Shown: positions 3,155 to 63,880 of the stretch, one piece after another | How positions within the stretch are numbered: the stretch's first letter is position 1 | How the letters are laid out: each line of letters begins with the position of its first letter | Source: a virus | Length of the DNA stretch: 64,000 bases | Direction: 5' to 3' (one strand) | Virus record (IMG/VR): IMGVR_UViG_3300006037_000005 | Span: 62,599-126,598 of that record | Made by a program: the position numbers and the translations under genes | Notes under the pieces: model-generated | Told to the model about the DNA's origin: nothing | What the model saw: the letters and a program-made list of their open reading frames with translations, nothing else | Databases searched by the model: none

Positions 3155-3162
3155 AATGTTTA

Positions 3163-46196: not shown

Positions 46197-47570
46197 ATGG
46201 AGTATAGAAAAATGATGAATAGCATATCCCCAGTTGATGGAAGATATGCAAAAAAATTGGAAAATGTTAACCAATATTTTTCAGAGATAGGAATAATAAA
46301 GGCAAAAATATTGGTTGAAGTTGATTATTTGGAATTCATATCAACAGAATTTTCAAAAGATTGTGATATTGAAAAAATAAGAAAATATATACATAGCCTC
46401 GAAGATTTTTTGTTGTATGACAATATCAAAATGATTGAATCTGTAACAAAACACGATACAAAAGCCATAGAATATTTCTTGAGAGAGGTTCTTACCGATA
46501 CGGACCAAAAACATTTAATACCTTTCATACATTTTGGCCTGACATCACAAGATGTCGTAAGTTTTTCATATAATTATAATATCTTAAATTTCAGAGTTGA
46601 ATTATTTGAACCGTTGTTTAGAAGTTTAACAAGAAAGATGCTTGATATTGGACAAGAAAGATTTGAAAACAGATTTATAACAAGAACCCATGGGCAACCA
46701 GCTATCATAGCAAATTCTTTTAATGATGAAGTTTTTGTTTTATATAGAGATAGAATAAAAGCACAATATTTAAAACTTGAGAGGATAAATCAAGAAGTTA
46801 AATTTGGTGGTGCTATTGGCAATCTCGATGCACACTATACTGTGAAACCAACAAATTGGGAATCAAAAATGAATGATTTCATGAAAAATTTTGGTTTAAA
46901 AAGACAAATCCGTACGACACAGATAGAAAATTATGAACATTTGGTCGAGTATCTCGATATAACAAAAAGAATCAACAATATCTTAATAGATTTCTGTAGA
47001 GATTTTTGGTATTATATTTCAATTGGATATATTAAAATCAAAAAAGATGAGAATTCTATTGGTAGTTCAACAATGCCCCAAAAAATAAATCCTATTTTGT
47101 TTGAAAATGCTGAGGGGAATCTAGAATATGCAAACTGTCAAATATCTTTCTTATCTGATAAACTTCTGAAATCAAGATTACAAAGAGATTTGACAGATTC
47201 AACTGTCATGAGAAATATTGGTGTTGTATTTAGTCATTGTGTTTTGGCTTATGAAAATATTATTGATGCAATATCAAACACATCACCTAATATTGATAAA
47301 ATGGAATCTGATGTTCAAGAAAATGGTCAAGTTCTATCAGAAAAAATTCAAACAATTTTAAGATTTTACGGTCATAGTGATGCATATGAAATTATAAAAG
47401 GTCTATCAATGGGTGAAAAAATACCGATGTCTGAAATGCAGAATAGGATAGATGATATAATCAATGAAAACACATTTGTCTCTATTGTCAAAACTAATAC
47501 ACCATCTTTTAATAAGGAAACAGAGGAATATTTAAAGATCAAAGAATTAATAAAATCGTATCAAATATAA
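46197..47570 (+). CDS. purB: adenylosuccinate lyase
   Basis: SPVDGRY, KHD.KAIEY, HFGLTSQD, RTHGQPA, GSSTMPQKINP and SRLQRDLTDS motifs. Confidence 0.95.
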   Translation: MEYRKMMNSISPVDGRYAKKLENVNQYFSEIGIIKAKILVEVDYLEFISTEFSKDCDIEKIRKYIHSLEDFLLYDNIKMIESVTKHDTKAIEYFLREVLTDTDQKHLIPFIHFGLTSQDVVSFSYNYNILNFRVELFEPLFRSLTRKMLDIGQERFENRFITRTHGQPAIIANSFNDEVFVLYRDRIKAQYLKLERINQEVKFGGAIGNLDAHYTVKPTNWESKMNDFMKNFGLKRQIRTTQIENYEHLVEYLDITKRINNILIDFCRDFWYYISIGYIKIKKDENSIGSSTMPQKINPILFENAEGNLEYANCQISFLSDKLLKSRLQRDLTDSTVMRNIGVVFSHCVLAYENIIDAISNTSPNIDKMESDVQENGQVLSEKIQTILRFYGHSDAYEIIKGLSMGEKIPMSEMQNRIDDIINENTFVSIVKTNTPSFNKETEEYLKIKELIKSYQI

Positions 47571-47608
47571 GGAAAACAATATTTTTACACAAGAATGATA
47601 TACTCTCT

Positions 47609-48004
47609 GTGGAGATATTTGATGGAGAGAAATATGGCAAATTCTTTAAAACAGAATCTAGAAAAAACATATTTTCAAGGAAAATTGCTTCTTATAAACT
47701 TGTATCAGATTATCCAGGCTTTCAGCCAGTTAATGTGTCTCTAAATTCTTTTGAATCTGTTATGAATAAAAATATGCTTAAATTAAAGGAACCTGGTATT
47801 ATCCTGCAATTTAATAAAGATTTGGAAGCATTCACCTTGCCTATGGTATTGGTCACAATGAAATCTAGTGGTAATATTAAACACGATTTCTTGGTAAAAG
47901 ATTCTTATGATGAAGCAGTGAAAATTGGTGGGGATATGTTATTAGGAGGAGAAGGTTTTATTAGAATAGATGTTGATAACGACAATATTTATATTGCAAA
48001 ATGA
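47609..48004 (+). CDS. hypothetical protein
   Basis: ORF. Confidence 0.55.
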   Translation: MEIFDGEKYGKFFKTESRKNIFSRKIASYKLVSDYPGFQPVNVSLNSFESVMNKNMLKLKEPGIILQFNKDLEAFTLPMVLVTMKSSGNIKHDFLVKDSYDEAVKIGGDMLLGGEGFIRIDVDNDNIYIAK

Positions 48005-48321
48005 TAGTAAGAAACAACAATTTGATAGACAAAACCATAAGTTTAGATCTTTCACCAAACATAAATATAAATTTAACAAAAGATGAATATGATAATCTTG
48101 TTAAATCTTTGTGTCAGTCGATGTCTGAAGAAATTGAACAATCTCACAAGAGAGAACAAAAATCTCTAAATAGGAATAAGCAGGTTAGTGATTTAATAGA
48201 AGATGTTAGGAATTTCTTTTATGATTGTGATGGTTTCTGTATTAAAAGAGATTTAACAGAATTAAAAGATCAAAACTTACAGGTTATACTTGATAAATAT
48301 GATGAACTTCTTGGCTTTTAA
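48001..48321 (+). CDS. hypothetical protein
   Basis: ORF. Confidence 0.55.
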   Translation: MIVRNNNLIDKTISLDLSPNININLTKDEYDNLVKSLCQSMSEEIEQSHKREQKSLNRNKQVSDLIEDVRNFFYDCDGFCIKRDLTELKDQNLQVILDKYDELLGF

Positions 48322-48923
48322 TTTTTTGATGATAAAGCACCTGCTTCGTGCATAGATACACCATTCTTGAAAAGATAACTCAAATGTTCATATTGTTTTT
48401 TTGAACATTTCTTTTCTTTTATTATCTCTTTGACTATATTTGTGAAAAATCTGTTATTCACATTATTGTTGTATTTGTTAGGTAAAGAATTGAATTTCTT
48501 AACAATATCTGAAATTTGTGTACTAGAAAATGTAATAATTTCCTTATCTGCGGCAATTCTTTTTGGTGTTTCTTGTTTCAAATCAGAAATTATGGTAGTA
48601 CTAACGGGAGCAAAATTGAGATTTTCAAAATTGTTGTATTTACAATATAATCTTTCACACTTAGGGCAAAATTCAAGAGAGGTCAATTTGTTGTTTGAAC
48701 AATAAAAGACAAAGCATTCTCTTGGTGAACCTTTTAAAGAAATTAGTTTATTCACACTACAATTGAAAAATCCATCAACAATACCGAATTGAACTGGTAT
48801 CTCTCTTAAATTTCTGTGTGAAATATCAACATTTCCTTTAACATCGATAGTTAAATCCTTGTTGATTGTGTAATTTCTGACACCATTGCTATCTAACCAA
48901 TCTTTAATTTTCTCTCCTGTCAT
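48318..48923 (-). CDS. LRR family paralog with a different C-terminal module and no RLSKFR tag
   Basis: NYTINKDLTIDV...IPVQFG...SLKGSPREC. Confidence 0.8.
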   Translation of the reverse strand: MTGEKIKDWLDSNGVRNYTINKDLTIDVKGNVDISHRNLREIPVQFGIVDGFFNCSVNKLISLKGSPRECFVFYCSNNKLTSLEFCPKCERLYCKYNNFENLNFAPVSTTIISDLKQETPKRIAADKEIITFSSTQISDIVKKFNSLPNKYNNNVNNRFFTNIVKEIIKEKKCSKKQYEHLSYLFKNGVSMHEAGALSSKN

Positions 48924-49219
48924 ATATTTTCAGCAAGTTCCCCAGCACCAAGACTTTCCTTAATATCTTCTATATCAATCTCTATACCAAACAATTCACA
49001 CCATTCTTCCAAATTACCAATATCAGCACCAAATCTTTGGACCAAATAACATTTATATGGACTATCTGGCTGAACTTCTTGCAAGACAAAACCCTGTGTT
49101 TTTAGGACAGGATTCCTAAGCAATTTTATTACAGTATATTCTTTGCCTTTTTGTATCCAATTGGTTTTTTTAACACCTTCTGGTCTATTTGAATCATCTA
49201 TACATATAACCTTGCACAT
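48920..49219 (-). CDS. hypothetical protein
   Basis: KVICIDD...KG.EYTV pattern. Confidence 0.65.
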   Translation of the reverse strand: MCKVICIDDSNRPEGVKKTNWIQKGKEYTVIKLLRNPVLKTQGFVLQEVQPDSPYKCYLVQRFGADIGNLEEWCELFGIEIDIEDIKESLGAGELAENI

Positions 49220-49324
49220 AACCTTCTTTTATTCAAAATCTATAAATTATTATATCCAAAAACACTTTTGGTTACAAAACAAAAATTCTAACCTATATTA
49301 TATACTAAAAGTCCATAAAAGTAT

Positions 49325-51472
49325 ATGATAAATTCAACAGATCCAAGATTACTAACCTTCATAAGGTCTGGTATGTCTAAAGACATAGCATACATAGATG
49401 ATCCAACTTATCTTGGTTTTACTCTGTTATTTGATTTCGAAGATTCCATCTCAACAAGATATAGTTTTGAAAATTGCTCACCTCTTTTTTCAGAAGATCC
49501 GAATAGGAATTCTGCAATAAATTATCTCAAGAACATAGGGGAGACAGGCAGAGCAATTTTAATGAAATCTTTCAAAGAGAAATTAATAAAACTTAATCGT
49601 GAATTCCCATATTATTTCCAGAAGGTATCAGGTATTGGTGATATAAATTCATTTGTGAAGCATAATGCTACGGATGCAAAGATTACCATAGAAACTTTGG
49701 ATTCTATGGATTTTAGGGTGACTTCCATGATTGATGATTATATTAATGCAGTTTTTGATTTTACAAACAGAAGGCAAGTTGTTCCAGACAACCTTCTGAG
49801 ATTCAAGTTTTGTATTCAAATATCTGAAATCCGCAATATCAAAATATATTCTGCAGATACTAAAACCTTTGAAAATCTCAACACAAAGGAATCATATAAT
49901 GATGAGGTTGGAAACAAATTGAACATGATTATCCTTGAGTATGATTATTCCCTTTTCGATTTCAATGAATCAACTTCTTTTTCCGAAATTTTGAATACTG
50001 CACCAGATGCACATTCAAACATATTCTCCATATACCCAGGTAGACTTACTACAAGCAGAAAACTAAATTTTGCAAATTTCTTGAATCAAGTTGTTATAGA
50101 TTCAATAAAAGGATCTGATTTCAATTCAAATTCTGAGTATTCAACAACAGCCCTTTCTAAACCCAAAGAAGTTAATACATCGCTTCTGTCTAGAACACAA
50201 GACAGAATAAATTCAGACATAAATGGCTATATAGCAACAGCTTTATTGAAAAAACCCACTGGTAATTTAACACTTGAATCCTTGGCAGAAAGAGGTATAA
50301 ACGATGTTTTAAATCAGATAAAATATAAAATAAACAATCTTCTTCTTGGTAATATTTACACAAATACCAACACAAACGATTTATATTCTCAAATAAAAGA
50401 TTTTGTCGAAGCAAAAATAAAAAAACAAAATAAAAATGTTATAGATCCAATGACTTTACCAAATCTTGACTTAACAAAAGTATCAGATATAGGAAACATT
50501 GATAAAACTAAAAAATCAGATAATTCAATACAACAGAATTCAATAGAGGTAGGAAATCAAAGTTCAAACAAAATAAATAGAACATTATTACAATCCGATA
50601 TTTCAGACAACAGCATCAATTCAAAGATTATAGAGGATGCTGAAAAATCTGATAACAAGATACCCAATAAAATATTAGAAGAAACAGAATCAGATAATAG
50701 CATTGGTTCAAAATTTATTGAAAAATCTGACTCATCTGAAAATAAAATACCCTTAAAAATCGAATCTATATCAAAATCTGATAATAATATAGGTTCGAGA
50801 TTCATTGAGAAATCAGAATTGTCTGAAGATCAGATTTCCGACAAAGTTTTGAAAGAAACACAATCAGATAATAGCATTGGTTCAAAATTTATAGAAAATG
50901 CCAATATTTCAAATTCAAAAATTGCCGAAAAAATTGAAAGACAAGAGCCATCAAATTCAGAAATATCAAATAAAATTATTGAAAAATCAGAAAATTCTGA
51001 ATCTGGGATATCAAACAGAATCATAATAGATGAATCAATAACCAATAACAGTATTGATCAAAAATTCATCGAAAGATCAAAAAATTCTGATTCAAATATT
51101 GGTGTTCAAAATATTTTATCAAATGAACCAAGCGCTAAAAATCTTACCGATACAGATTTGGGTTTTTTTAATTTTGCCGTGTCTTCTGATTCAATTATAC
51201 CAAACAAAAAAATTGAAGAGGCACAGATATCTAAGAATGATATTCCAAATACCATAATTGGAGAAATGGAGCAATCAAAAAATTCTGAGCCAGCACAGAC
51301 AAATATTTTATCAAACGATAATCTTCTGAAATTATACATCAATAATATTGGTAATATAGAACAATCACCAATCGAGGAGATCATAAAAAGGGTAACTCTG
51401 GGTAGTCTCGGTAATGCAAGAGAAAGAAATGAAAGAGATAATAAAGATAACAAACCCCAAAATCAAGCTTGA
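49325..51472 (+). CDS. probable tail/baseplate structural protein with internal 14-15 aa repeats
   Basis: DDPTYLGF and P(Y)YFQ.VSG N-terminal region; S.NSI..K.IE repeats; position in a plus-strand structural cluster. Confidence 0.55.
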   Translation: MINSTDPRLLTFIRSGMSKDIAYIDDPTYLGFTLLFDFEDSISTRYSFENCSPLFSEDPNRNSAINYLKNIGETGRAILMKSFKEKLIKLNREFPYYFQKVSGIGDINSFVKHNATDAKITIETLDSMDFRVTSMIDDYINAVFDFTNRRQVVPDNLLRFKFCIQISEIRNIKIYSADTKTFENLNTKESYNDEVGNKLNMIILEYDYSLFDFNESTSFSEILNTAPDAHSNIFSIYPGRLTTSRKLNFANFLNQVVIDSIKGSDFNSNSEYSTTALSKPKEVNTSLLSRTQDRINSDINGYIATALLKKPTGNLTLESLAERGINDVLNQIKYKINNLLLGNIYTNTNTNDLYSQIKDFVEAKIKKQNKNVIDPMTLPNLDLTKVSDIGNIDKTKKSDNSIQQNSIEVGNQSSNKINRTLLQSDISDNSINSKIIEDAEKSDNKIPNKILEETESDNSIGSKFIEKSDSSENKIPLKIESISKSDNNIGSRFIEKSELSEDQISDKVLKETQSDNSIGSKFIENANISNSKIAEKIERQEPSNSEISNKIIEKSENSESGISNRIIIDESITNNSIDQKFIERSKNSDSNIGVQNILSNEPSAKNLTDTDLGFFNFAVSSDSIIPNKKIEEAQISKNDIPNTIIGEMEQSKNSEPAQTNILSNDNLLKLYINNIGNIEQSPIEEIIKRVTLGSLGNARERNERDNKDNKPQNQA

Positions 51473-52805
51473 TGAGATTTTTGTGGATGATGCTTTTGAA
51501 GGCACAGCAGATCCATCAATATATTCTGATAAAAAATATTACAAGGCTTATGGTGTTTATGCACCAATGGCATCCATAAACAAATATGTTATGGGGAAGA
51601 ACGATATAATAAGTCTTGTGATAGATTCTTCGTCTTTCTTACCAACAGTTAACATGACATTCGTTGATAAAACTGGTGTATTCTCTTCTAAATATTTTCC
51701 TTTAGATGGTGATGTTGTTTCTATTCATATTAGAACACAAAATAATAAATATAAAGGTGTCAGATGTGATTTTGAAATAATAAAAATATCTGGTACACAA
51801 TCAGCATCTGACAAATTAACAGGTTCAACATATTCATTGCAAGGTGTTATGAAAATACCAAATTTGTTTGTTGACCAATGTTTCTCTTGGTCCAATTCAA
51901 CTTCATTTGATGCTCTGCTAAATACTTCAAAATTGCTTGAACTTGGCTTCGCTTCAAATGAAACAAAAACCAATGATAAACAAAATTGGATTTGTCCTTT
52001 CTCAAACACCAAAAATTTCATAGAAAAAACAACCTTGCATTCGTATTTAAATGATAACTCTTTTTTCACAACATATGTTGATACAAATTATCATTTAAAT
52101 TTCGTTAATGTGAATGATATTTTTCAGATTGATGCAGAGCCAATTTATGTTGACTATGTTGATTTATTCAAAACAGAAGATCAAGTGAATGATAAAAATA
52201 TAGAAACCGATACTGCACCATTAATACTTAGTAATGCACCATCTTATACAAGATCGCCAAATTATGTGGCTTCTATATCTATTTTCAACAATTCTGGTGA
52301 TGTGAACATAAGAAATGGTTACAGGAGATACATCCAATACTATGATGCCTCGAATATAAAATATGTTGAAAATTTCATAGAATCCTTCACCACAGATGGT
52401 GCAGAAACAAAGAAAACCAATAAAGGCAGAGAAGATGAAGATTATACAAAAAGATTAAAATATAAATATGTTGGTGAGATCGATGATGATAATGTTCATA
52501 AAAATTATAGGTACGCAAGTATTCTAAATTATCAAAATTTAGAAGATATAAATAAGACTGGTATCACAGTCGATTTACCAACATTCAACCCAACATTAAG
52601 GAGATTCATGGTAATACCCGTTGCAATATTCCACTCTTATAATGAATCATTATCGAAATCAAACAACACCAAGACAGATCAAACAGCTTCAGTGGACAAT
52701 TTTTTGTCTGGTGATTATATAATAAAAGATATCAAAATAATCTATGATGGTATTAACACTTATCAAAGGCTTATTTTGGTTAGGAGAGAATGGCAAAAAG
52801 ATTAA
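51429..52805 (+). CDS. probable baseplate hub/tail protein
   Basis: FLP...M.F.D, D....LNF and LSG.Y.I..I patterns typical of gp27/GPD-like hubs. Confidence 0.55.
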   Translation: MKEIIKITNPKIKLDEIFVDDAFEGTADPSIYSDKKYYKAYGVYAPMASINKYVMGKNDIISLVIDSSSFLPTVNMTFVDKTGVFSSKYFPLDGDVVSIHIRTQNNKYKGVRCDFEIIKISGTQSASDKLTGSTYSLQGVMKIPNLFVDQCFSWSNSTSFDALLNTSKLLELGFASNETKTNDKQNWICPFSNTKNFIEKTTLHSYLNDNSFFTTYVDTNYHLNFVNVNDIFQIDAEPIYVDYVDLFKTEDQVNDKNIETDTAPLILSNAPSYTRSPNYVASISIFNNSGDVNIRNGYRRYIQYYDASNIKYVENFIESFTTDGAETKKTNKGREDEDYTKRLKYKYVGEIDDDNVHKNYRYASILNYQNLEDINKTGITVDLPTFNPTLRRFMVIPVAIFHSYNESLSKSNNTKTDQTASVDNFLSGDYIIKDIKIIYDGINTYQRLILVRREWQKD

Positions 52806-52811
52806 TATATT

Positions 52812-54710
52812 ATGGCTGGACCAAAGGACACCAAATCATCTGAAAACAGAAACAAAAAAGGTAATATAGCTGCACAGAAACACAGTAATTTTAAAAAGCC
52901 AGATTTAAAATCATCTTTACAAGATAGAACTGGTGCTATAACAAAAGATACTGTTGATTCTTCGAAATTCAATAAATCCATTGATTATTCAAATCGTGAT
53001 ATTGCAAACAACCCAGCTATAGTAAGACAGATGAATTCTGTTCAGGATAAAAATCTTGCCTATGCCTATGATGATATGAAAGAAGTTGATAAAGCACCAG
53101 CAAACACAAAAGGTGCACCATCAATATTCAATGATCTTGCCATTGTTGTTCACAGACAATACAATAATAAAAATGACTTCTTTGATACAGATGGTAAATC
53201 TGGACCATATGATAAAGCATCAAGAGAATATACGATAGATTCCTTGCTAAGAGATTTCCCATCAAAAAATGAGAAAATTGATTCAAAAGGAACTGTTCAA
53301 AATGTAGTCAGTACAAAGCCATATTTCAGATCTGATTTTCTCATGACCAAATGGTCAAGGATTCTTCCTATAAATCACATGATCACACTGAGAAGATTTC
53401 CATTCCCAACTTATGATAATTTGAAATTCGATGGTGGCAGACAATTTAAGCCAATAGCACAGGCAGTGGCATATTTTGGTGCTGACACCGAGAATTCATT
53501 AGCAGAATTATCCAAATTTGCTGGTGGTATAAATTGGGAAAAATTTGAAGCCAAAGAAAATGAAGTCGAAGGTAATGAAAAAGGATTTGATGATACACCT
53601 TTCATGGACGATTTGAAAGTATCTAAAATGAAGATACCTTTTACTGGTAAATCTGTGAATGGTAATACAGTGGCGCAAGGGTTAAAACATGCTACTGGTC
53701 TTGAACAATCAAGGGGGCAAACAGGCCTGTTTGATTTGGATCAACAAGATAGACTTCGAATGGCTCAAGATATAAATTACACAAACAAAGTTCTTGGTCC
53801 GGTGAATGTTATAACTTCCACACATATTAGAGCAAGAGGTATACAAGCAGATCAACAACAGATATCTGTTACTTTCGAGTATGATTTGGGTTCTTACAAT
53901 GGAATGAATCCGAAGATAGCCATGCTTGATCTTATGTGCAATATGCTTGCACTCTGTTATAACAATGCTAAATTTTGGGGTGGTGTTAACAGATATTATC
54001 CAGATTTAAAAGCACAACAGCATTCTTTCCTTGGTGATCAAAGCAAATTCTATTCTGGTGATTATGCTGGATATATAAGCACCGTTGTTAAACAACTTGG
54101 TGATACTGCAGGTGGTGGTGGTATGAATATGCTTGGTGGTATGATACAAAATGTATTAAATGGTGATTTCAGAGGAGCATTGAACAGCCTTGGTAGTGTA
54201 GCCAAAGGTATAGGGAATTACATGGGTGATTTACAAAGAGCAAAATCAAGACCAAAAGTACTTGGTTTTAAGGCACTTTTGACTGGATTACCAATAGGTG
54301 AGTGGCACATGGTTGTGGGTAATCCATATAAACCTATCATGACAATGGGTAATTTGATCTGTGAAAGTTTTGATTTTTCATATGATGGTGAACTTTCTGT
54401 TGACGATTTCCCAACAAAATTGAAATTCATTATAAATCTTAAACATGGGAGGCCTCGTGATAAGGGAGATTTGGAATCGATATTCGCTGAAGGACAAAGA
54501 ATTTATCATCCATCTAAAGGTGTAGCCGATGTAGCTAATATGTCTGCCGCTACCGAAACTGTATTTACTAAGAAATCGTCAACATCAAAGGTTGGCAATG
54601 ATAAAAATAAAAATTATTTTGGCAAGGAAAAATCTGCACCACCCTTAATGGTTGCACATGGTAATCAAAGTTTGGAATTCATGAAATTTGCGAACGGTAC
54701 AACCTATTGA
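52812..54710 (+). CDS. probable tail tube initiator/baseplate protein
   Basis: ITLRRFP, F.Y.L, and WH..VGNP..PI..MGNLIC...DDFP pattern; operon context. Confidence 0.5.
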   Translation: MAGPKDTKSSENRNKKGNIAAQKHSNFKKPDLKSSLQDRTGAITKDTVDSSKFNKSIDYSNRDIANNPAIVRQMNSVQDKNLAYAYDDMKEVDKAPANTKGAPSIFNDLAIVVHRQYNNKNDFFDTDGKSGPYDKASREYTIDSLLRDFPSKNEKIDSKGTVQNVVSTKPYFRSDFLMTKWSRILPINHMITLRRFPFPTYDNLKFDGGRQFKPIAQAVAYFGADTENSLAELSKFAGGINWEKFEAKENEVEGNEKGFDDTPFMDDLKVSKMKIPFTGKSVNGNTVAQGLKHATGLEQSRGQTGLFDLDQQDRLRMAQDINYTNKVLGPVNVITSTHIRARGIQADQQQISVTFEYDLGSYNGMNPKIAMLDLMCNMLALCYNNAKFWGGVNRYYPDLKAQQHSFLGDQSKFYSGDYAGYISTVVKQLGDTAGGGGMNMLGGMIQNVLNGDFRGALNSLGSVAKGIGNYMGDLQRAKSRPKVLGFKALLTGLPIGEWHMVVGNPYKPIMTMGNLICESFDFSYDGELSVDDFPTKLKFIINLKHGRPRDKGDLESIFAEGQRIYHPSKGVADVANMSAATETVFTKKSSTSKVGNDKNKNYFGKEKSAPPLMVAHGNQSLEFMKFANGTTY

Positions 54711-55237
54711 TGATTTACACCCAATGCCATTAGTAAAGCTTGTTTTAATCCATCTTCTAAAGCATCTTCATAAGATTTAAATGATGGATTAAAACATTCT
54801 TGATTCTCATCTCTGTCCTCTCCACATTGATTAAAGCTAGACCAATCCAACAATTGACATGGGTTTGTTCTAATGATTTGGAAAGAAAAACCATCTCTCC
54901 TAAAACTATCATAACCACATTTTTCTCTAAATATTGGTAGAACATAAACCTCAATATTATGAAAATCTCTAAGCCATGTCTGTAATGAAGTTTGTGTTGG
55001 TCTAAGATAATAGTCTTCTCTGCTACAGTCTTCTACTTGTATTTCACATTCTTTAAATGTAGACAAATCAAGATGACCATTATCATCAGTTTCACAATAG
55101 AATCCATTCACATATGTTGGATCTGAAGATCCAAACATGAATTCCAGTTTTTTAGCTAAAACAGATGTCTGAAATTCAATACGTCTTTCGTGATTCAAAT
55201 AATTATTAGATATATCTTTCATGATTCCAGTTATCAT
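54704..55237 (-). CDS. hypothetical phage protein
   Basis: PTQ..LQ.WLR...I.V and YE.ALE.GL pattern. Confidence 0.7.
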   Translation of the reverse strand: MITGIMKDISNNYLNHERRIEFQTSVLAKKLEFMFGSSDPTYVNGFYCETDDNGHLDLSTFKECEIQVEDCSREDYYLRPTQTSLQTWLRDFHNIEVYVLPIFREKCGYDSFRRDGFSFQIIRTNPCQLLDWSSFNQCGEDRDENQECFNPSFKSYEDALEDGLKQALLMALGVNHQ

Positions 55238-55305
55238 TATCTATTTAGTGAGCATTTTCAAGCGCATATATTTACTTATCTTCCTAACTACAATACCGAT
55301 TTTTA

Positions 55306-56037
55306 TCATATTGTTTTAAGAAATTTATACAAATTCAAATTCCATTTTGCATCATCAAGAGCATTATGTTCATTATCCTGTTTAGGATAATCTTCTCTTG
55401 ATTTCAAATCATATAAATATTTGTTGTCTTCAATCCCTCTAGATATACGCTCATTGTTTTCTTGTGTACCAGCAGATGCTTTTTCATCAAACGTCTGTTT
55501 CAAATCTCTACAATACATTGGAAACCCATTTGGTAAATCTATCATTCTACCAAACAAGAAACAAAATACCACCCAATCATATGAACAATAGTAAGCATAA
55601 AATTCTACATCCTTGAATTTAAAACTCGGTTTGAACAAATCTGCTGGACTTAAATCTTCATCTTCATTATATGCAACGAATTCTTTTATCTCTTTTGCTA
55701 TAATTTCATTGGTCTTACCAAATTTATTAATCAAAAATCTGAAATCTTCAATACAAAATATGATTCTGTTGTCCCTTCCGAATTCTTTTAATTTTGTATC
55801 ATAAGATATATGTGAGTACAATTCATACAACTCATCAAAGATTGATTTTAATACATTTTCTTTTAACCAATCATTTTTCCAAGCTTTTTCAATATCGAAA
55901 TCTTTAGATATCGAATAATATTCTTTGTTATTTTCTGCAACAATACCTATCGAGATAAGTTCTATTGTGTGAACTGATCTACCCATGAGAGGTTTTGACT
56001 TGTATTCATGAAATTCAGTATCGAAGAAATATTTCAT
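55306..56037 (-). CDS. DEDDh 3'-5' exonuclease (Rv2179c-like)
   Basis: FFDTEF, LISIGIV, YDWV and HNALDDA motifs. Confidence 0.88.
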   Translation of the reverse strand: MKYFFDTEFHEYKSKPLMGRSVHTIELISIGIVAENNKEYYSISKDFDIEKAWKNDWLKENVLKSIFDELYELYSHISYDTKLKEFGRDNRIIFCIEDFRFLINKFGKTNEIIAKEIKEFVAYNEDEDLSPADLFKPSFKFKDVEFYAYYCSYDWVVFCFLFGRMIDLPNGFPMYCRDLKQTFDEKASAGTQENNERISRGIEDNKYLYDLKSREDYPKQDNEHNALDDAKWNLNLYKFLKTI

Positions 56038-56306
56038 TTTTGATTATTTATTATATCTATAATTCCTTTGTTGAATTTATCGTTTTTCCAAATTGTCACA
56101 CATGAACTCCATTTTGTTTCAAACATGGATGTTGTTACCATGACAATACGATTTTCATCACCGTCTTGTCTTATTTGAAAGTCACAATTTGAAGTATATG
56201 TACCAACAAAATCACCATCATCTGTGTAAATATTAAAACGAGCACCATATGGCAAAATTCCTATCACATGGTGCAAAATATCTTGTAAATATCCTATATC
56301 AGTCAT
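56034..56306 (-). CDS. hypothetical protein
   Basis: ORF with ATGA overlaps. Confidence 0.6.
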   Translation of the reverse strand: MTDIGYLQDILHHVIGILPYGARFNIYTDDGDFVGTYTSNCDFQIRQDGDENRIVMVTTSMFETKWSSCVTIWKNDKFNKGIIDIINNQK

Positions 56307-57847
56307 GCCGTTTTATTTTTCTTTTTCTCAAGAAGTTCCTTCATATTTTTGATATCCACCTCAATCTCATCGGCATTTTTACCTGCCTCAACTCTACCAA
56401 AAAATAAATCAAAAATTATTTCTCTCATAACAGAAGATTTTTCTTTTGTGAATATTGCTCCAGACACAGAATTTACCATTGTATCATCAATATTTTGCCT
56501 TGTACCATCTTTGTGGGAAATATAGGTCTTTGAATTTTCTTCTCTCATACCAAGATAGGTATCTAGACCAGAATTTACCATCATTTTTATTGATGGAAAC
56601 AAACTCTGAAAATCCCAACCACAAACATATTTGAATTTACCAGGCATTGGTTCTTTCACATAACCACCAGCATAAGATTCATCATCATCCCCTTTGAAGA
56701 AGTCGTATTCAACTTCATCCATTTCTTCTTTATACCCTTCATCATAATCTGTTACGATTACCATATTTTTGGCATAAAGTTTCTTCACCAAGAGTGCTTC
56801 GATTGTTTTAGAAGCATACAAACCATTATCGATTTCTGTATTTGCCACAAAAGCAATGGATCTCAATGAATCGAAACTGTTTATTTTTTCATCTATTAAA
56901 GAGACTATTATGGCATCAACAGCATTATAGAAAATATAAGTTTCAAAATCGTTTTGATAAAGTTCTGTTAAAGTACCATTGTATTCAACTTTCTTAACAC
57001 CAAAAAGTTCATTTGCAACCCAATCAAGTTTTGATGATTCTTTGATAGCGACAGATGTATCAAATTTTTCATACATTGCCTGATAGTCGGTTATAAGTCT
57101 ATGAACAGGAAACTTCGTTTTAACGCCTTCACCTTTTTTAGCGAATTTCCTTTTCAGAAGGGAATTCTTCATCTTTCCTGTTGGTGATACCACAGAGACA
57201 TCAAGCTTGAGTTTTTCTGCTCTAGCTATAATATATGCCCAGTCAAATGGTTTAAAATTCCAACCACTTATAAAAGGCATTCTCGGTATATCATTTCTTA
57301 GGAGATCAAGAATCATGAGTTCTTCGGAAGTGTAATAACGATACTCCCATCTGAAAGTTCTGTTTAGTTGTTTAAAATGAGCATCAATTCTCGCTTGTAT
57401 CTTTTCTATTTGAAGACCAGTCAATTTCACAAGACCAGTAGAAGTTGCTACCTTTGTTTTTTGGCTATAGAAGGTGTTGGTTAGGATTTGTTCTATCGGG
57501 TTCTCCATCAATTCTTGGATTTTGAGTCCGTGTGTCATTGATGTTTCAATATCCATAAACCATTTATCAACCTTGTGGAATTTGAAAAGAGTTGATTTTA
57601 TTTCATCTGGTAACCTCTGTATCAATTCTGTTACTCTGTGTTGGGTAAGATATTTAGTTTTTATTTTTTTAATAGCCTTCTCATCATGAGAAAGCATTGA
57701 TGTACTTCTACTTGGATCTTTTTCTGAGCAATAAACCCATTTATAAAATTCTGATTCTGGTATTTGTATTTTATGGAATCCAATAGAACCATCCTCTTTT
57801 ATATAAGAGATAATAAGCTGATCTTTTATCTGTTCTGAATTTATCAT
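56303..57847 (-). CDS. family B DNA polymerase, N-terminal subunit (3'-5' exonuclease plus motif A)
   Basis: DIET, GWN...FD, YN..D, GGYVKEP and DFQSLFPS motifs. Confidence 0.9.
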   Translation of the reverse strand: MINSEQIKDQLIISYIKEDGSIGFHKIQIPESEFYKWVYCSEKDPSRSTSMLSHDEKAIKKIKTKYLTQHRVTELIQRLPDEIKSTLFKFHKVDKWFMDIETSMTHGLKIQELMENPIEQILTNTFYSQKTKVATSTGLVKLTGLQIEKIQARIDAHFKQLNRTFRWEYRYYTSEELMILDLLRNDIPRMPFISGWNFKPFDWAYIIARAEKLKLDVSVVSPTGKMKNSLLKRKFAKKGEGVKTKFPVHRLITDYQAMYEKFDTSVAIKESSKLDWVANELFGVKKVEYNGTLTELYQNDFETYIFYNAVDAIIVSLIDEKINSFDSLRSIAFVANTEIDNGLYASKTIEALLVKKLYAKNMVIVTDYDEGYKEEMDEVEYDFFKGDDDESYAGGYVKEPMPGKFKYVCGWDFQSLFPSIKMMVNSGLDTYLGMREENSKTYISHKDGTRQNIDDTMVNSVSGAIFTKEKSSVMREIIFDLFFGRVEAGKNADEIEVDIKNMKELLEKKKNKTA

Positions 57848-57850
57848 CTT

Positions 57851-59044
57851 TTAAAATAATGATGGGAATAATATCAAGTTTCTATCCAACTCCATTAAAT
57901 TCATAGATTTTAGGATATTGTTTATTGGAGCAAGTATTAATTTTTCGAATTGCAAATCATAATCAATATCCTTTGCAATTTCTATCGGATAAGTTCCTGG
58001 TAAAAAAGAGAAAGTTTCAATTTCATCATTTTTCGTATAGTAATACTTAACCCTATCACCAGATTGAATGAGTTGATATTTGTTTTTGTACTTCGTGTTG
58101 TACAAAAGATAGTTGTAAACTGCAGAACCTTTCGTATGTGGTTTACAATTTTTACCAATTTCAATGGCTGTTTTATCATTCAAGATAAAATCATAATAAT
58201 TTGAGATCCTCTCTGTTTTACAGATGTTGTCTATATCAGTGGTTTCAAATTCATTTCTCAAAGATAGAAGTATGTCTAAAAGTTTATTTTGATTGAACTC
58301 ATTGGATATGATGAACTTTATCATATCCTTGAGTTTGTTTCTGCAAAATTTTGGTATAGAGGATTGAGAGGTTTCAATCCCCTTGGTTTCAATTTTCTCC
58401 AATGACTTGAATCTATTGCCTTTCTTCCAAATAGTATCTTTGATATATTTTTTCTTGGCTAACCAGATAACAGATTCACAAATTTGTTCAAATACTAATT
58501 TGAAGGCTGGACTACCATCGGTTTTAATTTCAAATCCATTGAATTTCTTTACATAGGAAGATAAAGAATCAATTATGAAATTGTTGATTCGAAATTTACA
58601 AATATTTTGTATGAAATCAACAAAATCCAATTTTTGACCATCTTTCCAAACAATACCATCGTAAACTGAATCAAAAACAACAAAAACTGAATCTGTATCA
58701 AGATAATTAACAACATTGTGATGTATTCTTGATACAGATTCAATACCAATTCTGTTGTGCAATTCTGAATCTCTATACCAGATTTCTTTGAAATAATGAT
58801 TGAAAACCCTTTCTGTATATTGGATTATATCTTGTGATTGTAAAGTTGTTGATTCCGCAATGTTTCTAAGATAGAAAGGGAATCTGTTAAACCCCTCAAC
58901 ACCATAGACAGAATTTAGAATAACTTTACAGCCTTGATCATAATTCCTATTAAAGAGTTTTGATGATTCAAGCCTCTGTATTTCATTCTCTATATCATCA
59001 ATGCTTGAATTTTCATCGACAGAAGAATGCTTGAATTCATACAT
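57851..59044 (-). CDS. family B DNA polymerase, C-terminal subunit (motifs B and C, thumb)
   Basis: KVILNSVYG, YLDTDS, KKKY and KGIE motifs. Confidence 0.9.
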   Translation of the reverse strand: MYEFKHSSVDENSSIDDIENEIQRLESSKLFNRNYDQGCKVILNSVYGVEGFNRFPFYLRNIAESTTLQSQDIIQYTERVFNHYFKEIWYRDSELHNRIGIESVSRIHHNVVNYLDTDSVFVVFDSVYDGIVWKDGQKLDFVDFIQNICKFRINNFIIDSLSSYVKKFNGFEIKTDGSPAFKLVFEQICESVIWLAKKKYIKDTIWKKGNRFKSLEKIETKGIETSQSSIPKFCRNKLKDMIKFIISNEFNQNKLLDILLSLRNEFETTDIDNICKTERISNYYDFILNDKTAIEIGKNCKPHTKGSAVYNYLLYNTKYKNKYQLIQSGDRVKYYYTKNDEIETFSFLPGTYPIEIAKDIDYDLQFEKLILAPINNILKSMNLMELDRNLILFPSLF

Positions 59045-59046
59045 TT

Positions 59047-59259
59047 TTATACTCTCGCTTTAAATATTGGGATCTGTAAAAACAATTTAACAAGAATCGA
59101 TATTAAAGGTATCTTATACAAAAATGTAATATCGAAGGTAGTACCAAAAACCAACAATATTAAAGAAAGTATTATTGAATCTATGATACATCTGACAAAA
59201 ATCTCCGTTAGAACCTTTTTATTAAATATTGCTGAATATACAAGGCTAAATTTGTTCAT
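59047..59259 (-). CDS. small membrane protein
   Basis: hydrophobic 70 aa ORF. Confidence 0.5.
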   Translation of the reverse strand: MNKFSLVYSAIFNKKVLTEIFVRCIIDSIILSLILLVFGTTFDITFLYKIPLISILVKLFLQIPIFKARV

Positions 59260-59264
59260 GGTTA

Positions 59265-60077
59265 TTATTTTTTAAGATTTGACAATGTTACTAGGATTTG
59301 ATCATTGATATCTTTTTTAGCCAAAAGCAAAAACATATCATCAGATTTTGGGTGTTTAGAAATGAAGAAATCGTAAATGTTCTTAGACATAAGATCGAAA
59401 ACCTGTTTTGGAACAAGATAAGATCCTTGTGTGAAAGAATCTGATTTTTCGAAATCTGATTCATAATCAAAACTCCACGCATCTGATTTAGATGAGAATG
59501 TTATGACATCTGAAATGTCAATTCTAAATGCTGTTGTAACATTGGCATCCTTACCTTCCGCATCAATACAATCACAGATCTTATCTGCAATATCCTGTGT
59601 AACGACAAAATGCACAAGTGAATCCTGTGTAGAAGATATCTGTTGCCATACATTATTCGGCATGTATGGTATATTTTTTGTGAATTCAGCTGGATTTATC
59701 TTGAAAGATAGTTTTTTGTGCTTAAGTTCCAATGATTTACCAACAAGACCACCAACTGTTGGATCGTGTTCAACCAAAAATTTACCTTCTATTAAATCGA
59801 TCTTTTGAGATTTATAAATCTCAAGTACACACATTATGTGTTTCAATTTAAAGAATGGAAATTTAATATCAATTTTCAAGGTCTTGTCATCCCATTCCAA
59901 TATATCAGACATATTTTGTCTTACATATTTTACATAAGTTTTCTGAGTTGGATGACCTTTTGATATGATATAATCGTTGTCTATATCATATGTGTGTGGA
60001 AAATCTCCACATTTTGATTCTTTTATGAAATCTAATAGTGCACAGACATTTAGATTTTTAAATTTAATTTCCTGCAT
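59265..60077 (-). CDS. possible sliding clamp (gp45/PCNA-like)
   Basis: 270 aa, two-domain alpha/beta alternation, directly upstream of the polymerase; no diagnostic motif. Confidence 0.4.
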   Translation of the reverse strand: MQEIKFKNLNVCALLDFIKESKCGDFPHTYDIDNDYIISKGHPTQKTYVKYVRQNMSDILEWDDKTLKIDIKFPFFKLKHIMCVLEIYKSQKIDLIEGKFLVEHDPTVGGLVGKSLELKHKKLSFKINPAEFTKNIPYMPNNVWQQISSTQDSLVHFVVTQDIADKICDCIDAEGKDANVTTAFRIDISDVITFSSKSDAWSFDYESDFEKSDSFTQGSYLVPKQVFDLMSKNIYDFFISKHPKSDDMFLLLAKKDINDQILVTLSNLKK

Positions 60078-60114
60078 ATGGGTTTTATTATTTAAAAAGA
60101 TTTTAGTTTCAATT

Positions 60115-60624
60115 TCAAGGTGTTTTTGAAGTAAATGATTGCACAGCCAAGCCTTTCTTTATAAGACCAAAAATATCATAGTTCCTCTTAAAAAGGTACG
60201 CTATGATAAAAGGTATGTTATTAGAAATATATTTCTTGTTTAGATTTTTGTCAGAAACTATTATTGATAATGTGTCTGGGTTTATTGTTACATCATAGTC
60301 ATCTCCTTGGCAAACAATGTTGTTTCCACTTCTTTTTGTTTTGAATTTGAAATTCTTATCATTAACGGCAAGTTTTGCAACATTTATAATATCTGCTCTT
60401 GCTATGGATGACATTTTCCTGAGCATAAACTTTATGCTGTTTATTGAAACCTCCAGATTGTCTACCTTCTGATTCGATATTATACATGTCTTCTTCTTTC
60501 TGTTTATCGATATGAGTTTTGCTCTACCATATGGTGAAGTTACTTCACCATTACCATACATATCGATAATATCAGAAAATCTTATATTGTCTGTTCCTAA
60601 ATTCTTAAGTATTGGATCTTTCAT
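60115..60624 (-). CDS. hypothetical phage protein
   Basis: K..LR.MS and Y.....DIFGLI..GLA pattern. Confidence 0.65.
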   Translation of the reverse strand: MKDPILKNLGTDNIRFSDIIDMYGNGEVTSPYGRAKLISINRKKKTCIISNQKVDNLEVSINSIKFMLRKMSSIARADIINVAKLAVNDKNFKFKTKRSGNNIVCQGDDYDVTINPDTLSIIVSDKNLNKKYISNNIPFIIAYLFKRNYDIFGLIKKGLAVQSFTSKTP

Positions 60625-61249
60625 TTTCTGATAAGTAGTCTTCTATCTGTTTATTTTCAGACTTTATGTCCTTATTATATATGAAATTGTTTCCATATCT
60701 ACCATTCGGATATCTTGATTTCAATTTTATGAAATTTGTAGCCATAACCTCTGAGAGAGAAAATTTCCATTTAGCCAAAATCAATGTGTAGTAGAAAAGT
60801 ATATCACCCATTTCAGCAATTTTCGAAGACCTTGAAATTTCTTTCTTAAAGAATATTTCATCCGCAACAATATCAGAAACTTCAGCCATTTCTGTTGACA
60901 TTTTTAATGTGGCTTGTAAGATATCGGAGACATCATCTTTTCTATTGAATACAGAAGTGACAAAACCCATATATGATGTAAAATCAATATTTGTATCACC
61001 AAGTATTGTCTCAAGTATGGCATTAGAGAATGGTGTCTGATCATATGGTTCTTTTAAAGTATAATAGAATCTGTTGACGAATTTTCTATTACTGAACAAA
61101 AAAAGAACTTTATTTTTCTTGTAGATATCACAAATAACAGTGCTGTTTTGCTGTTTTATAATAACTTCGTGATCTTGCTTTGAGGCATATAAATTTATGG
61201 TATGCCAAATGTTATTTGAATTACTTTTTGGATCAAAATTTTCAACCAT
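60605..61249 (-). CDS. mazG: MazG-like (all-alpha) nucleotide pyrophosphohydrolase with N-terminal extension
   Basis: E.AE..D, E.GD..FY and N..KL..RYP motifs. Confidence 0.8.
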   Translation of the reverse strand: MVENFDPKSNSNNIWHTINLYASKQDHEVIIKQQNSTVICDIYKKNKVLFLFSNRKFVNRFYYTLKEPYDQTPFSNAILETILGDTNIDFTSYMGFVTSVFNRKDDVSDILQATLKMSTEMAEVSDIVADEIFFKKEISRSSKIAEMGDILFYYTLILAKWKFSLSEVMATNFIKLKSRYPNGRYGNNFIYNKDIKSENKQIEDYLSENERSNT

Positions 61250-61838
61250 TTTTATTTGATTTATAAAAATTTAATATTAATTCAAGGGTTTTATCTATGG
61301 ATAGATTATCGTTGTGGATATTAAAATAGGGGTGTATAATATCTTTTGCAAATTCTTCTTTCTCAAATCTGCATCTGATCACAGCTTTGGAAAGCATTGC
61401 TATTCTTTTTTCATCACTATCATATCTTTCAAGTTGTCTTGCTTGAGATATAGATCCAGAAACCATGAGTTTTACGATTTTAATATCAAATTCCTCAAAA
61501 AAATGTTGTGGTATTATATTGACACCAGTAGGATTCATTATAAACAGATTCTTTTCTTTGAATTGTTCGGTGGAAGTGCCATATTTGAATCCGTTATGCT
61601 CAACTTTTTGTATAAAACCAAGATCTTCAAATTCTTTGTCTGATACAAAATTGTAGTCTTTACCGTCTATTTCAGAATCTCTTTTTGGTCTTGTGGTGTG
61701 TGAAACATCACCAATGAAATCGTAGCAATATTTAGCTTTTAGGAAATGATCTTGTAGTAGTAGATTTTTTATTGTGGTCTTACCAGAGCCACTATTCCCT
61801 ATTAATATGAGTTTTTTCGGTAATTTTATTGCATCCAT
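61242..61838 (-). CDS. gmk: guanylate kinase
   Basis: GNSGSGKTT, SHTTRPKR..E.DGKDY.FVS and YGT motifs. Confidence 0.9.
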   Translation of the reverse strand: MDAIKLPKKLILIGNSGSGKTTIKNLLLQDHFLKAKYCYDFIGDVSHTTRPKRDSEIDGKDYNFVSDKEFEDLGFIQKVEHNGFKYGTSTEQFKEKNLFIMNPTGVNIIPQHFFEEFDIKIVKLMVSGSISQARQLERYDSDEKRIAMLSKAVIRCRFEKEEFAKDIIHPYFNIHNDNLSIDKTLELILNFYKSNKNG

Positions 61839-61878: not shown

Positions 61879-62532
61879 TTATTTTTTCTTGGCTGTAACC
61901 TTTGGTTTTTTGGAAGCCTCTTCTAAAGATTCTGTAACAGTTTCAGAACTAACCTCTACAGTAGTTTCAGTTTCGGTAGTTACTTCTAAAGATTCTGTAA
62001 CAGTTTCAGAAGTAATCTCTTCAGCAGAAACTTCCACCTCTTCAGTTGTTCCAATGGTTTCAACTTCAGAAACAATCTCCTCCGATTTTGTTTCATCTAT
62101 GTCGATTATGGCTTCGACATCCCCTGTTGTGGCCTCATCCGTTTTCTCCTTTTCTATAACTGTTTCAAGTTTAGTATCAGTGTTGTCATAATTGAATATA
62201 AAATCTTTTATATCTCCTACAAGTCTGATACCAGCAATGCCATTTCTAGAATCAAATTTGTACAACTGTACACCAGAAGCATTTTTTAGTAATGTCATAG
62301 CATACATGAATTTTCTGATCATAACATAATCATGATCGAAATAATGGGAAATTTCGTTGAATGTGAATGACATATCCTTTCTATCCAAAAATGGCATCGT
62401 TTTAATTTTATCAACGAGTTCCATCTCTTCCGATTTTTCCAAATGGTCTGTCATTGAAAACCAATGAGAATCTATAAAAATGGAGTTGTCAACTTCTGTA
62501 GATGATAGTTTAATTTTGCTAAATACTTTCAT
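61879..62532 (-). CDS. hypothetical protein with acidic E/T/V low-complexity tail
   Basis: SETVTESLE duplicated. Confidence 0.75.
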   Translation of the reverse strand: MKVFSKIKLSSTEVDNSIFIDSHWFSMTDHLEKSEEMELVDKIKTMPFLDRKDMSFTFNEISHYFDHDYVMIRKFMYAMTLLKNASGVQLYKFDSRNGIAGIRLVGDIKDFIFNYDNTDTKLETVIEKEKTDEATTGDVEAIIDIDETKSEEIVSEVETIGTTEEVEVSAEEITSETVTESLEVTTETETTVEVSSETVTESLEEASKKPKVTAKKK

Positions 62533-62552: not shown

Positions 62553-62810
62553 GTGTATATATTCTATCACAAAGTGGTTTCTTCTATGGATTGTACAACA
62601 GTGAAGTTTAGGGGTCAAGAATTGAGCATAAAGAATGATACATTTTCTAACCCCCTTTTGAGATTAATGTTATCCTATATCGAAATTGTTGATATAAAAC
62701 ATGGTGAAGGTCTTATCTACTATGAAAGACTCAAAGATAATTGGAAACTTGAGATAGAAGATAAAGAATTGGATAACCAAATAAGAAAAATTTTAGCAAC
62801 AAGAAAATGA
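62553..62810 (+). CDS. hypothetical protein
   Basis: ORF; start uncertain. Confidence 0.5.
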   Translation: MYIFYHKVVSSMDCTTVKFRGQELSIKNDTFSNPLLRLMLSYIEIVDIKHGEGLIYYERLKDNWKLEIEDKELDNQIRKILATRK

Positions 62811-63415: not shown

Positions 63416-63424
63416 AAACAAAAC

Positions 63425-63880
63425 ATGAAGAAAAAACACATTTTTCTAAGCGATATCAACGATAAACAGTTTTTTGATAAACATTTTGGTCTATATAAAT
63501 ATCTAATTTACGACAAATATCAAACGCTTAAAGGTCTTGATTTCCAAAAATCCTTTCTCGAATTAGAGAGGAATCCAATAAGAAGATTCCTTTTTAACAA
63601 CAAAGCCGAGGAAGATTTTATAGAAAAATTAAAAAATAAAAAATATGAAAATATAATTTATCTTCTTTACAAATCTGAGCCAGAGGATGTAATAAACAAC
63701 ATAAAACAAAATATAATACCAAAATTCGATAAATTATACAGTATTGATATCTCAATCATAACAGATGAGGATTATTATGAAGAGGATTATTATCTTGAAA
63801 ATCTGATAAATATTGAAATAATAAAGCCATCTAATGCTATCCTTAGCAACAATAAACAACAAGAGAGAGATAACAGATAG
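63425..63880 (+). CDS. hypothetical protein
   Basis: 151 aa ORF. Confidence 0.65.
   Translation: MKKKHIFLSDINDKQFFDKHFGLYKYLIYDKYQTLKGLDFQKSFLELERNPIRRFLFNNKAEEDFIEKLKNKKYENIIYLLYKSEPEDVINNIKQNIIPKFDKLYSIDISIITDEDYYEEDYYLENLINIEIIKPSNAILSNNKQQERDNR

Follow-up and report, generated by a model that had tools for sequence, protein, structure and literature searches.

A lineage of large phages with family-B DNA polymerases, which includes the cultured Flavobacterium phage MaF61, probably makes dZTP, the triphosphate of the 2-aminoadenine (Z) deoxynucleotide, by a largely phage-encoded pathway. The lineage is represented here by a stretch of 64,000 nucleotides (hereafter, the window) that comprises bases 62599-126598 of the 126,598 bp IMG/VR virus record IMGVR_UViG_3300006037_000005; the record is judged to be ~60% complete, the G+C content is ~30% all along the window, and the source is probably a large uncultured phage of Bacteroidota. 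The prediction draws on the families of four genes in the window, the intact catalytic motifs of their products, their conservation in the lineage, their clustering, and the restriction of a kinase variant with Gln at the base-reading position to this lineage, from which we infer which substrates the enzymes use and that the phage DNA contains Z. The four genes are:

21318-22622, minus strand: PurZ-like succino-2-amino-deoxyadenylate synthetase (434 aa; Pfam Adenylsucc_synt, 1.1e-8, 34.6 bits)
46197-47570, plus strand: PurB, adenylosuccinate lyase (457 aa; Pfam ASL_C, 2e-28, and Lyase_1, 1.9e-26)
60605-61249, minus strand: MazG-fold nucleoside-triphosphate pyrophosphohydrolase, candidate for the conversion of dGTP to dGMP (214 aa; catalytic domain at ~88-185, with an N-terminal extension)
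61242-61838, minus strand: Gmk-1, nucleoside monophosphate (NMP) kinase of the guanylate kinase family, candidate dZMP kinase (198 aa; Pfam Guanylate_kin, 3.3e-16, residues 8-94 only)

The original prediction for this DNA held that the purB, gmk and mazG-like genes give the phage a nearly host-independent dZTP pathway, with every step except Ndk and the dATPase encoded in the window, dispersed rather than clustered. All three are open reading frames (ORFs) with conserved homologues and not chance reading frames, and candidates for the MazZ-like (by position and clustering), PurZ, PurB and Gmk steps are indeed dispersed over 40 kb of the window. The exception made for Ndk was borne out as well, as no NDK gene was found in this record, in MaF61 or in one complete relative. 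With regard to the exception made for the dATPase, the genome does hold a candidate dATP-removing HD hydrolase outside the window.

In the proposed pathway, the MazG-fold enzyme would convert dGTP to dGMP, the Ser-type PurZ would join dGMP and aspartate, the phage PurB would remove fumarate to yield dZMP, and Gmk-1 would phosphorylate dZMP to dZDP, the replacement of Glu by Gln reversing the hydrogen bond that the enzyme presents to the base at N1; the host Ndk would complete dZTP. GMP/dGMP phosphorylation and adenine removal may be provided for by three further proteins encoded elsewhere in the genome: a Glu-type paralogue (Gmk-2), a hydrolase of the HD family and an adenosine deaminase. In the accessible papers, the Z pathway is presented as three or four phage genes that depend on the host PurB, Gmk and Ndk, and a phage with its own PurB and a retuned Gmk would depart from this scheme. 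If the prediction is correct, flux or specificity can be limited at the downstream steps, which is plausible at 30% G+C, where ~1/3 of the nucleotides would have to be Z; Z genomes would also occur among the large phages of Bacteroidota that have a family-B polymerase, and the enzymes, a candidate dZMP kinase among them, would offer synthetic biology a ready-made set that is less dependent on the host. The cultured member of the lineage, MaF61, makes the idea directly testable at the bench.

The committed step is assigned to the PurZ-like protein, the P-loop of which (GSAGKG) carries Ser at the position of the catalytic Asp of PurA (Asp13). Its top matches in the PDB are 6fm1/6fko (6e-16), which we take to be the phiVC8 PurZ, in keeping with a 20-residue offset to the published S14/F12 numbering, and the S-2L PurZ 7odx (4.4e-13); the PHROG 1211 family, “2-aminooxy adenylosuccinate synthetase”, is matched at 9e-19. 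The substitution of Ser for Asp13, combined with the kinship to phage PurZ and archaeal-type PurA, places the protein by sequence among the Ser-type PurZ, with 25-29% identity to the characterized enzymes. Comparison of the PDB alignment with the residues named in the accessible text of bioRxiv 2025.10.22.683976 shows that S14, T262 and F295 (phiVC8 numbering) are kept, and that F12 and Y298 are replaced by Ala and His, respectively. Ser14 is present in 100% of 147 phage PurZ/PurZ0 proteins and the corresponding Asp is 99% conserved in PurA, according to the main text of PMC12884076, and the S14D substitution is reported, in the same accessible preprint text, to abolish the selectivity of PurZ. 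The PurZ motifs are common to the homologues from the window, from MaF61 and from G021, a complete IMG/VR genome described below.

One close PurZ relative, 65% identical, is encoded at positions 2992-5364 of a 19,170 bp IMG/VR contig (L003), immediately downstream of an adenosine deaminase gene; this 790 aa protein is interrupted at the conserved TSR site by an intein with a LAGLIDADG endonuclease. Inteins generally sit in genes that are important to their carriers, and the gene therefore seems to matter to the phage. In the window, purZ adjoins a gene at 22666-24501 (plus strand) for a 611 aa Hef-like homing endonuclease, with matches to homing endonucleases that occur in multiple copies in jumbo phages of Campylobacter, Pseudomonas and Bacillus; the identification of this ORF as a terminase was rejected.

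The most specific evidence comes from Gmk-1. The protein matches the PHROG 1815 family, “guanylate kinase”, at 1.1e-27 over residues 10-154, and 36 sequences in the PDB, the best being mouse guanylate kinase 1lvg (1.2e-9); a profile of phage-type Gmk proteins, Gmk-1 included, matches 1lvg at 4.8e-31 over residues 1-190. Gmk-1 is like cellular guanylate kinases (human GMPK, mouse 1lvg) in that it retains the P-loop and the ligands equivalent to S37, R41, R44, Y53, Y81 and T83, both in the 1lvg alignment and in multiple alignments, as well as the LID arginines, with R134, R138 and R155 invariant. It is unlike them at the residue that reads guanine, Glu72 of the human and mouse enzymes, opposite which the 1lvg alignment places a Gln. 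Because of this Gln, Gmk-1 is classified here as an NMP kinase of the guanylate kinase family and not as a proven guanylate kinase. In guanine, N1-H is a hydrogen bond donor, whereas in 2-aminoadenine, as in adenine, N1 is an acceptor, and the 2-amino donor is kept. The Gln amide can satisfy both the N1 acceptor and the 2-amino donor, whereas the Glu carboxylate cannot accept from such an N1. The candidate assignment of Gmk-1 as a dZMP kinase is strengthened by this specific residue change. A murine enzyme with such an exchange (E72Q, combined with D103N) has reportedly been found to work as an adenylate kinase (Stolworthy and Black 2001). In human GMPK, guanine is hydrogen-bonded by S37, E72, T83 and D103; the E72A mutant has no detectable activity, and T83A and D103A have little effect, as stated in the accessible part of PMC12297293.

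The Gln variant is rare and is associated with PurZ. In an alignment of 22 Gmk sequences, Gln is found in three (Gmk-1 of the window, its 71% identical relative P0127 and the MaF61 protein) and Glu in the other 19, including the genome's own Gmk-2. At the same position, Glu is present in 78 and Gln in two of the best 80 loci among 411 IMG/VR relatives. When 50 of these 80 records, comprising the two Gln-type and 48 Glu-type ones, were searched with PF00709 (the PurA family), a single match was obtained, in the Gln-type genome G021, and none in the 48 Glu-type records (Fisher p = 0.04 for this test set). The second Gln-type locus (L180) is an 11 kb fragment, the neighboring genes of which match those of MaF61 and G021. 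Gln-type Gmks were also found in the PurZ-clade genomes G073 and G076-G079, whereas LR756500.1, the nearest outside phage as judged by UvsX, encodes a Glu-type Gmk and lacks a PurA-family gene. Among the loci compared, the Gln-type Gmk is restricted to the PurZ lineage.

These observations raise the tentative possibility, which we would not rate as an even chance, that the Gln-type Gmks (Gmk-1 of the window, ORF95 of MaF61 and those of the G021 group) are dedicated dZMP kinases, that, together with the fast-evolving phage PurB, they give these T4-like, family-B-polymerase phages of Bacteroidota the complete branch from dGMP to dZDP, as in no Z-genome virus known so far, and that the window phage has kept a Glu-type paralogue for guanine nucleotides. 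If so, the exchange of one residue would have retuned an NMP kinase in nature to a base outside the canonical set. The paralogue in question, Gmk-2 (G000:C1:22783-23475, minus strand; L100:2784-3476), lies outside the window and is a 230 aa protein, extended by ~75 aa at the N-terminus, in which the Glu is kept; it is 35% identical to Gmk-1, and the Pfam Guanylate_kin model covers nearly the whole of its kinase domain. The presence of two Gmk genes in a single phage genome is unusual.

The assignment of PurB is well grounded in sequence comparison. The protein matches 22 distinct sequences in the PDB, every one of them an adenylosuccinate lyase (best match 4efc, 2.9e-86, residues 9-419), and it retains all invariant columns of a 19-sequence alignment, including the catalytic His of the THGQ motif and the SSxMPxKxNP loop; H165, S290, S291, M293, P294, K296, N298 and P299 are invariant across the 18 homologues. 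The catalytic motifs are present in the PurB proteins of the window, G021 and MaF61; the window protein is 32% and 29% identical to the latter two, respectively, and all three form unusually long branches (1.1-2.2 changes per column). The three are dispersed in a FastTree phylogeny and lie on one side of a branch with support 75 in an IQ-TREE phylogeny, so that a single origin of the PurBs of PurZ phages is neither shown nor excluded. A scan of 50,697 GenBank phage records yielded PurB-like matches in eight: MaF61, two records of Streptomyces phage Hiyaa, Galactica, two contigs named MD-2021a and two fragments of 1.4 and 2.7 kb. One of the MD-2021a contigs, CAKLQF020000007.1 (L097, “Acinetobacter phage MD-2021a”, 174 kb), carries purB among trmU, a ycfC-type gene, pst transport genes and an adhesin gene, and looks bacterial rather than viral.

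The conservation of the gene set was assessed in MaF61 and in IMG/VR. Single-protein searches returned only one close relative of PurZ and none of PurB, and alignment queries were used afterwards: G021 was reached by scanning with PF00709 the records that a profile of the Gmk alignment had matched, and a search of IMG/VR with the PurZ-clade alignment led to 10 loci. The nearest cultured phage is MaF61 (PQ858689.1, 167.8 kb), which has 25 reciprocal protein matches with the window genome (E <= 1e-5), including the major capsid, sheath and terminase proteins, the polymerase, PurZ (37% identity), PurB (29%), Gmk and the HD-like protein; the MaF61 gmk and HD_3 genes are one gene apart. A search with UvsX returned no close cultured relative, the best match being LR756500.1 (34%). 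G021, a complete genome of 151,607 bp with terminal repeats and 40.6% G+C, shares 35 proteins with the window genome and 50 with MaF61; its identities to the window genome are 37% for PurZ, 32% for PurB, 36% for both MazG and Gmk, and 35% for the HD-like protein. In G021, purZ (57775-59205), purB (60199-61470) and mazG (63365-63835) lie within 6 kb and are followed by a gene for a clamp-like protein, an arrangement taken from the only one of the five complete relatives that was mapped; its Gmk and HD genes are elsewhere, the latter at 86916-87674. MaF61 and the five complete IMG/VR genomes of ~150 kb share PurZ, PurB, Gmk and the HD hydrolase at 29-40% identity, and the five of the 10 PurZ-clade records in which ASL_C (PurB) was found are exactly the complete ones (G021 and G076-G079). 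The fragments of the PurZ clade retain parts of the set, mazG followed by the clamp-like gene and the C-terminal part of the polymerase in G071, and Gmk with the HD gene in G073. Within this one phage lineage, three branches that diverged deeply have each retained PurZ, PurB and Gmk as a set. In addition, a 204 kb contig encodes PurB, Gmk and MazG proteins identical to those of the window genome.

The candidate for the dATP-removing step is an HD-like protein encoded outside the window (G000:C1:15874-16473, minus strand; L095:1474-2073), 30% identical to the HD_3/YfbR-like ORF97 of MaF61. It matches no Pfam family and appears to be a diverged candidate hydrolase of this kind. Its gene adjoins a probable clamp-loader gene, recognized by eye from the sequence, and the same neighborhood is found by homology in G021. 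Within the window, the ORF at 62807-63415 was considered as the counterpart of the MaF61 HD gene and rejected. A gene of the adenosine deaminase family is located at 58579-59571 of the record, also outside the window.

For the first step of the pathway, the identity of the MazG-like protein as a MazG domain is weak but real by profile comparison. It scores 23.5 bits against Pfam MazG (6.7e-5; cut-off 22) and matches PHROG 229 at 2.4e-15, and its homologue in G021, 36% identical, scores 40.7 bits (2.9e-10); E120, E123, E146 and D149, which form the ExxE...ExxD motif, are invariant in a four-sequence alignment. An AlphaFold model, of moderate confidence only, has a mean pLDDT of 62.9, with 70-84 in the domain, and its top Foldseek matches are all of the MazG type (2gta, 5ie9, 2a3q and a dCTPase). 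A MazZ-like role for this protein is plausible by position and clustering only, and that it works like MazZ is our reading of the context of its gene.

This context is that of a replication gene run, at the head of which the original prediction had placed adjacent gmk and mazG genes. This arrangement was confirmed: the stop of gmk and the start of mazG overlap by 8 nt, and mazG is followed, on the same strand, by an ORF of 169 aa, a clamp-like gene and a split gene for a family-B DNA polymerase:

59265-60077, minus strand: sliding-clamp-like protein (270 aa; ESM Atlas TM 0.68-0.72 to PCNA/clamp clusters; no Pfam or PHROG match)
56303-59044, minus strand: split family-B DNA polymerase (Pfam DNA_pol_B and exo1), replicase of the putative Z phage

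The clamp-like gene ties the gmk-mazG pair to a replication operon. Its homologues adjoin mazG in both G021 and G071, and in the latter the gene for the C-terminal part of PolB lies ~370 nt further on; the ORFs upstream of mazG in G071 were considered as relatives of Gmk-1 or of the N-terminal extension of MazG and proved unrelated. The parts of the polymerase are permuted in the window, the C-terminal palm/thumb gene (57851-59044) preceding the exonuclease/N-terminal gene (56303-57847); the two halves are ~23 kb apart in G021, and the gene is unsplit in MaF61. No family-A polymerase (DNA_pol_A) was found in this record, G021 or MaF61. The neighboring ORFs at 60115-60624 and 61879-62532 returned, respectively, nothing firm from Pfam or PHROGs and nothing from the ESM Atlas structure search.

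Several observations weigh against a phage-encoded Z pathway or against particular parts of it. With regard to Gmk, the phages with the Gln variant are all related, and its association with PurZ could be explained by shared descent alone, descent and adaptation not being separable in these data; G075 encodes a Glu-type Gmk only 2 kb from purZ. The phage-type subfamily has an FI[MF][TSN]P.G motif in the region of D101/D103 and the acidic pair is not conserved across it; an Asn of Gmk-1 is placed differently by MAFFT and HMMER, so that its equivalence to D101 or D103 is ambiguous. With regard to PurB, ASL_C was not found in the five PurZ-clade fragments, which are 21-64% complete, two of them overlapping, and represent four lineages. 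With regard to MazG, the window protein has no match among the PDB sequences at E <= 1 and PF04447 has no match in the record, which leaves it without sequence kinship to characterized MazZ or DUF550 proteins; the matches of its model to the four-helix MazG fold are weak and generic (best E 0.059, TM 0.64 normalized by target, none at E <= 0.001). Moreover, MaF61 encodes no homologue of this MazG, its ORF94 (downstream of gmk) and ORF62 having been compared and found to have no similarity to it. The HD-like protein of the window genome has HH(-E) where the MaF61 and G021 proteins carry the HD metal motif. Finally, the known Z phages manage with the PurB and Gmk of their hosts, so that phage copies are not chemically required (accessible text of bioRxiv 2025.10.22.683976). 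The original prediction was to be judged by the co-occurrence of these genes with purZ, and the outcome is divided: PurZ, PurB and Gmk are kept across the lineage and the Gln-type Gmk is tied to PurZ, but none of the three families is specific to Z as such, Gmk and MazG being common in ordinary phages and PurB being paired in other phages with an Asp-type PurA, which at the family level counts in part against the prediction, and the conservation does not extend to the MazG of MaF61.

This lack of specificity lends substance to the alternative that PurB, Gmk and MazG are generic auxiliary metabolic genes for the nucleotide pools of a large AT-rich phage, with no special tie to PurZ or Z, which we consider unlikely. 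In GenBank, 130 phage records, the greater part from phages of Staphylococcus, Bacillus, Lactococcus and Enterococcus, encode Gmk-like proteins, and 414, mostly from T4-like cyanophages, encode MazG-like proteins; the majority of both are not known Z phages. A need for adenine nucleotides is plausible in a genome of ~30% G+C, and in other IMG/VR phages PurB is paired with PurA of the Asp type (in all six readable cases) and, at locus L085, with an IMPDH/GMP-reductase gene. This explanation, however, does not account for the Ser-type PurZ, for the 6 kb cluster of purZ, purB and mazG in G021 or for the confinement of the Gln-type Gmk to PurZ genomes. PurB-like proteins, furthermore, are rare in GenBank phages (the eight records listed above), and MaF61 and both Hiyaa records also carry a Ser-type PurA homologue.

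Even less probable, in our assessment, is the production of a 6-aminopurine other than Z, in which (d)AMP or an analogue would be formed by the Ser-type synthetase and PurB from (d)IMP or a different 6-oxopurine nucleotide, Gmk-1 would in effect act on (d)AMP, and the DNA would be of the ordinary kind or carry another modification. A doubly mutated mouse guanylate kinase, E72Q/D103N, said to have been described by Stolworthy and Black in 2001, is reportedly a functional adenylate kinase, and a Gln-type Gmk could serve AMP-like substrates generally. The low identity of the PurZ-like protein to characterized PurZ and its Ala and His at F12 and Y298 point in the same direction, as does the lack of a match to Pfam HD_3 (the DatZ type) and PF04447 (DUF550) in this incomplete (~60%) record. 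Against it stand the universal Ser14 of phage PurZ and PurZ0, the loss of selectivity in S14D, the retention of T262 and F295, and the occurrence of YfbR/HD_3-type homologues in MaF61 and G021, with a diverged one in the window genome. An extended, dispersed set of Z-pathway genes is the best reading, and it is supported.

Compared with the Z-cluster phages (phiVC8-like and S-2L-like, with PurZ, DatZ and MazZ/DUF550 along with DpoZ or PrimPol), the window phage has the same committed step, a Ser-type PurA homologue, and similarly possesses a MazG-fold candidate for the conversion of dGTP to dGMP and, in its lineage, HD-family hydrolase candidates. Unlike the tight Z-cluster, its genes are scattered over >40 kb; no DatZ-type HD hydrolase or Z-selective family-A polymerase accompanies PurZ, as is canonical, the replicase is a split family-B enzyme, and there are no PF04447 or HD_3 matches. 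Its genome exceeds 126 kb, whereas most listed PurZ phages have ~40-45 kb. PurB and one or two Gmk are also encoded by the phage itself, whereas the introductions of bioRxiv 2025.10.22.683976 and PMC12783734 assign the corresponding steps of the Z pathway to the PurB and GMP kinase of the host. The PurZ-linked domains named in the accessible text of the former are HD_3, PF04447, polymerase A and dUTPase. MaF61 resembles the window phage in its PurZ-like protein, PurB, Gln-type Gmk, HD_3/YfbR-like hydrolase, family-B polymerase and T4-like structural genes, and differs from it in having a single Gmk with an N-terminal extension and a different MazG-motif protein, ORF62, annotated as “nucleotide pyrophosphorylase”.

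The suggestion in the original prediction that this architecture is expanded and possibly undescribed can be maintained in part. No report of a phage-encoded PurB or Gmk in the Z pathway was found in the searchable literature, most subscription papers and supplements being outside its scope; the main text of PMC12884076, as distinct from its supplementary tables, which were outside the scope, contains neither “PurB” nor “kinase”, and a term search of a paper mentioning MaF61 found no adenylosuccinate, aminoadenine or diaminopurine. The description as “undescribed” holds only within this literature, and GenBank already annotates a PurB-like protein beside a Ser-type PurA-like one in Streptomyces phage Hiyaa. 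In this PurZ0 actinophage (MK279841.1, 49471-62412; L096), the Ser-type PurA-like gene (P-loop GSEAKG) lies 4.4 kb upstream of the annotated “PurB-like adenylosuccinate lyase”, the two being separated by a dUTPase-like gene of 292 aa. Its PurB is of a different subfamily (23.5% identical over 70% of the query), and Streptomyces phages are not among the ten organism groups named for the GenBank Gmk matches. Hiyaa is a second, unrelated phage group in which a predicted PurZ-type enzyme is paired with its own PurB.

A further point of comparison is provided by PurA-PurB cassettes in IMG/VR. Of 19 searchable PurB-bearing records, drawn from the best 80 PurB loci of 168 relatives, seven also have a PurA-family gene, which is short and often adjacent to purB and encodes a P-loop Asp in all six readable cases. 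Like the window phage, these phages combine PurB with an adenylosuccinate-synthetase-type partner; unlike it, their PurA has the P-loop Asp, scores 140-147 bits against Pfam PurA (34.6 here) and has an IMPDH/GMP-reductase gene alongside. Such loci (L084-L092, in G002, G007, G008, G010, G012 and G017) encode short Asp-type PurA proteins of 334-368 aa, often beside PurB, with the IMPDH/GMP-reductase neighbor in L085/L086; in the L085 pair, which was scanned, this gene stands beside the PurA-family gene. The cassette looks like a phage route for the conversion of GMP to IMP to AMP with canonical bases. A PurB encoded by a phage thus seems to accompany any adenylosuccinate-synthetase-type enzyme that the phage happens to carry, which in the window phage is of the Ser type.

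Two other genes of the window could bear on nucleotide recycling or DNA modification. A DHH-family phosphoesterase is encoded at 40915-41829 on the plus strand (PHROG 4771, 8.7e-38), and a C-5 cytosine DNA methyltransferase at 10970-11992 on the minus strand (Pfam, 1.1e-44).

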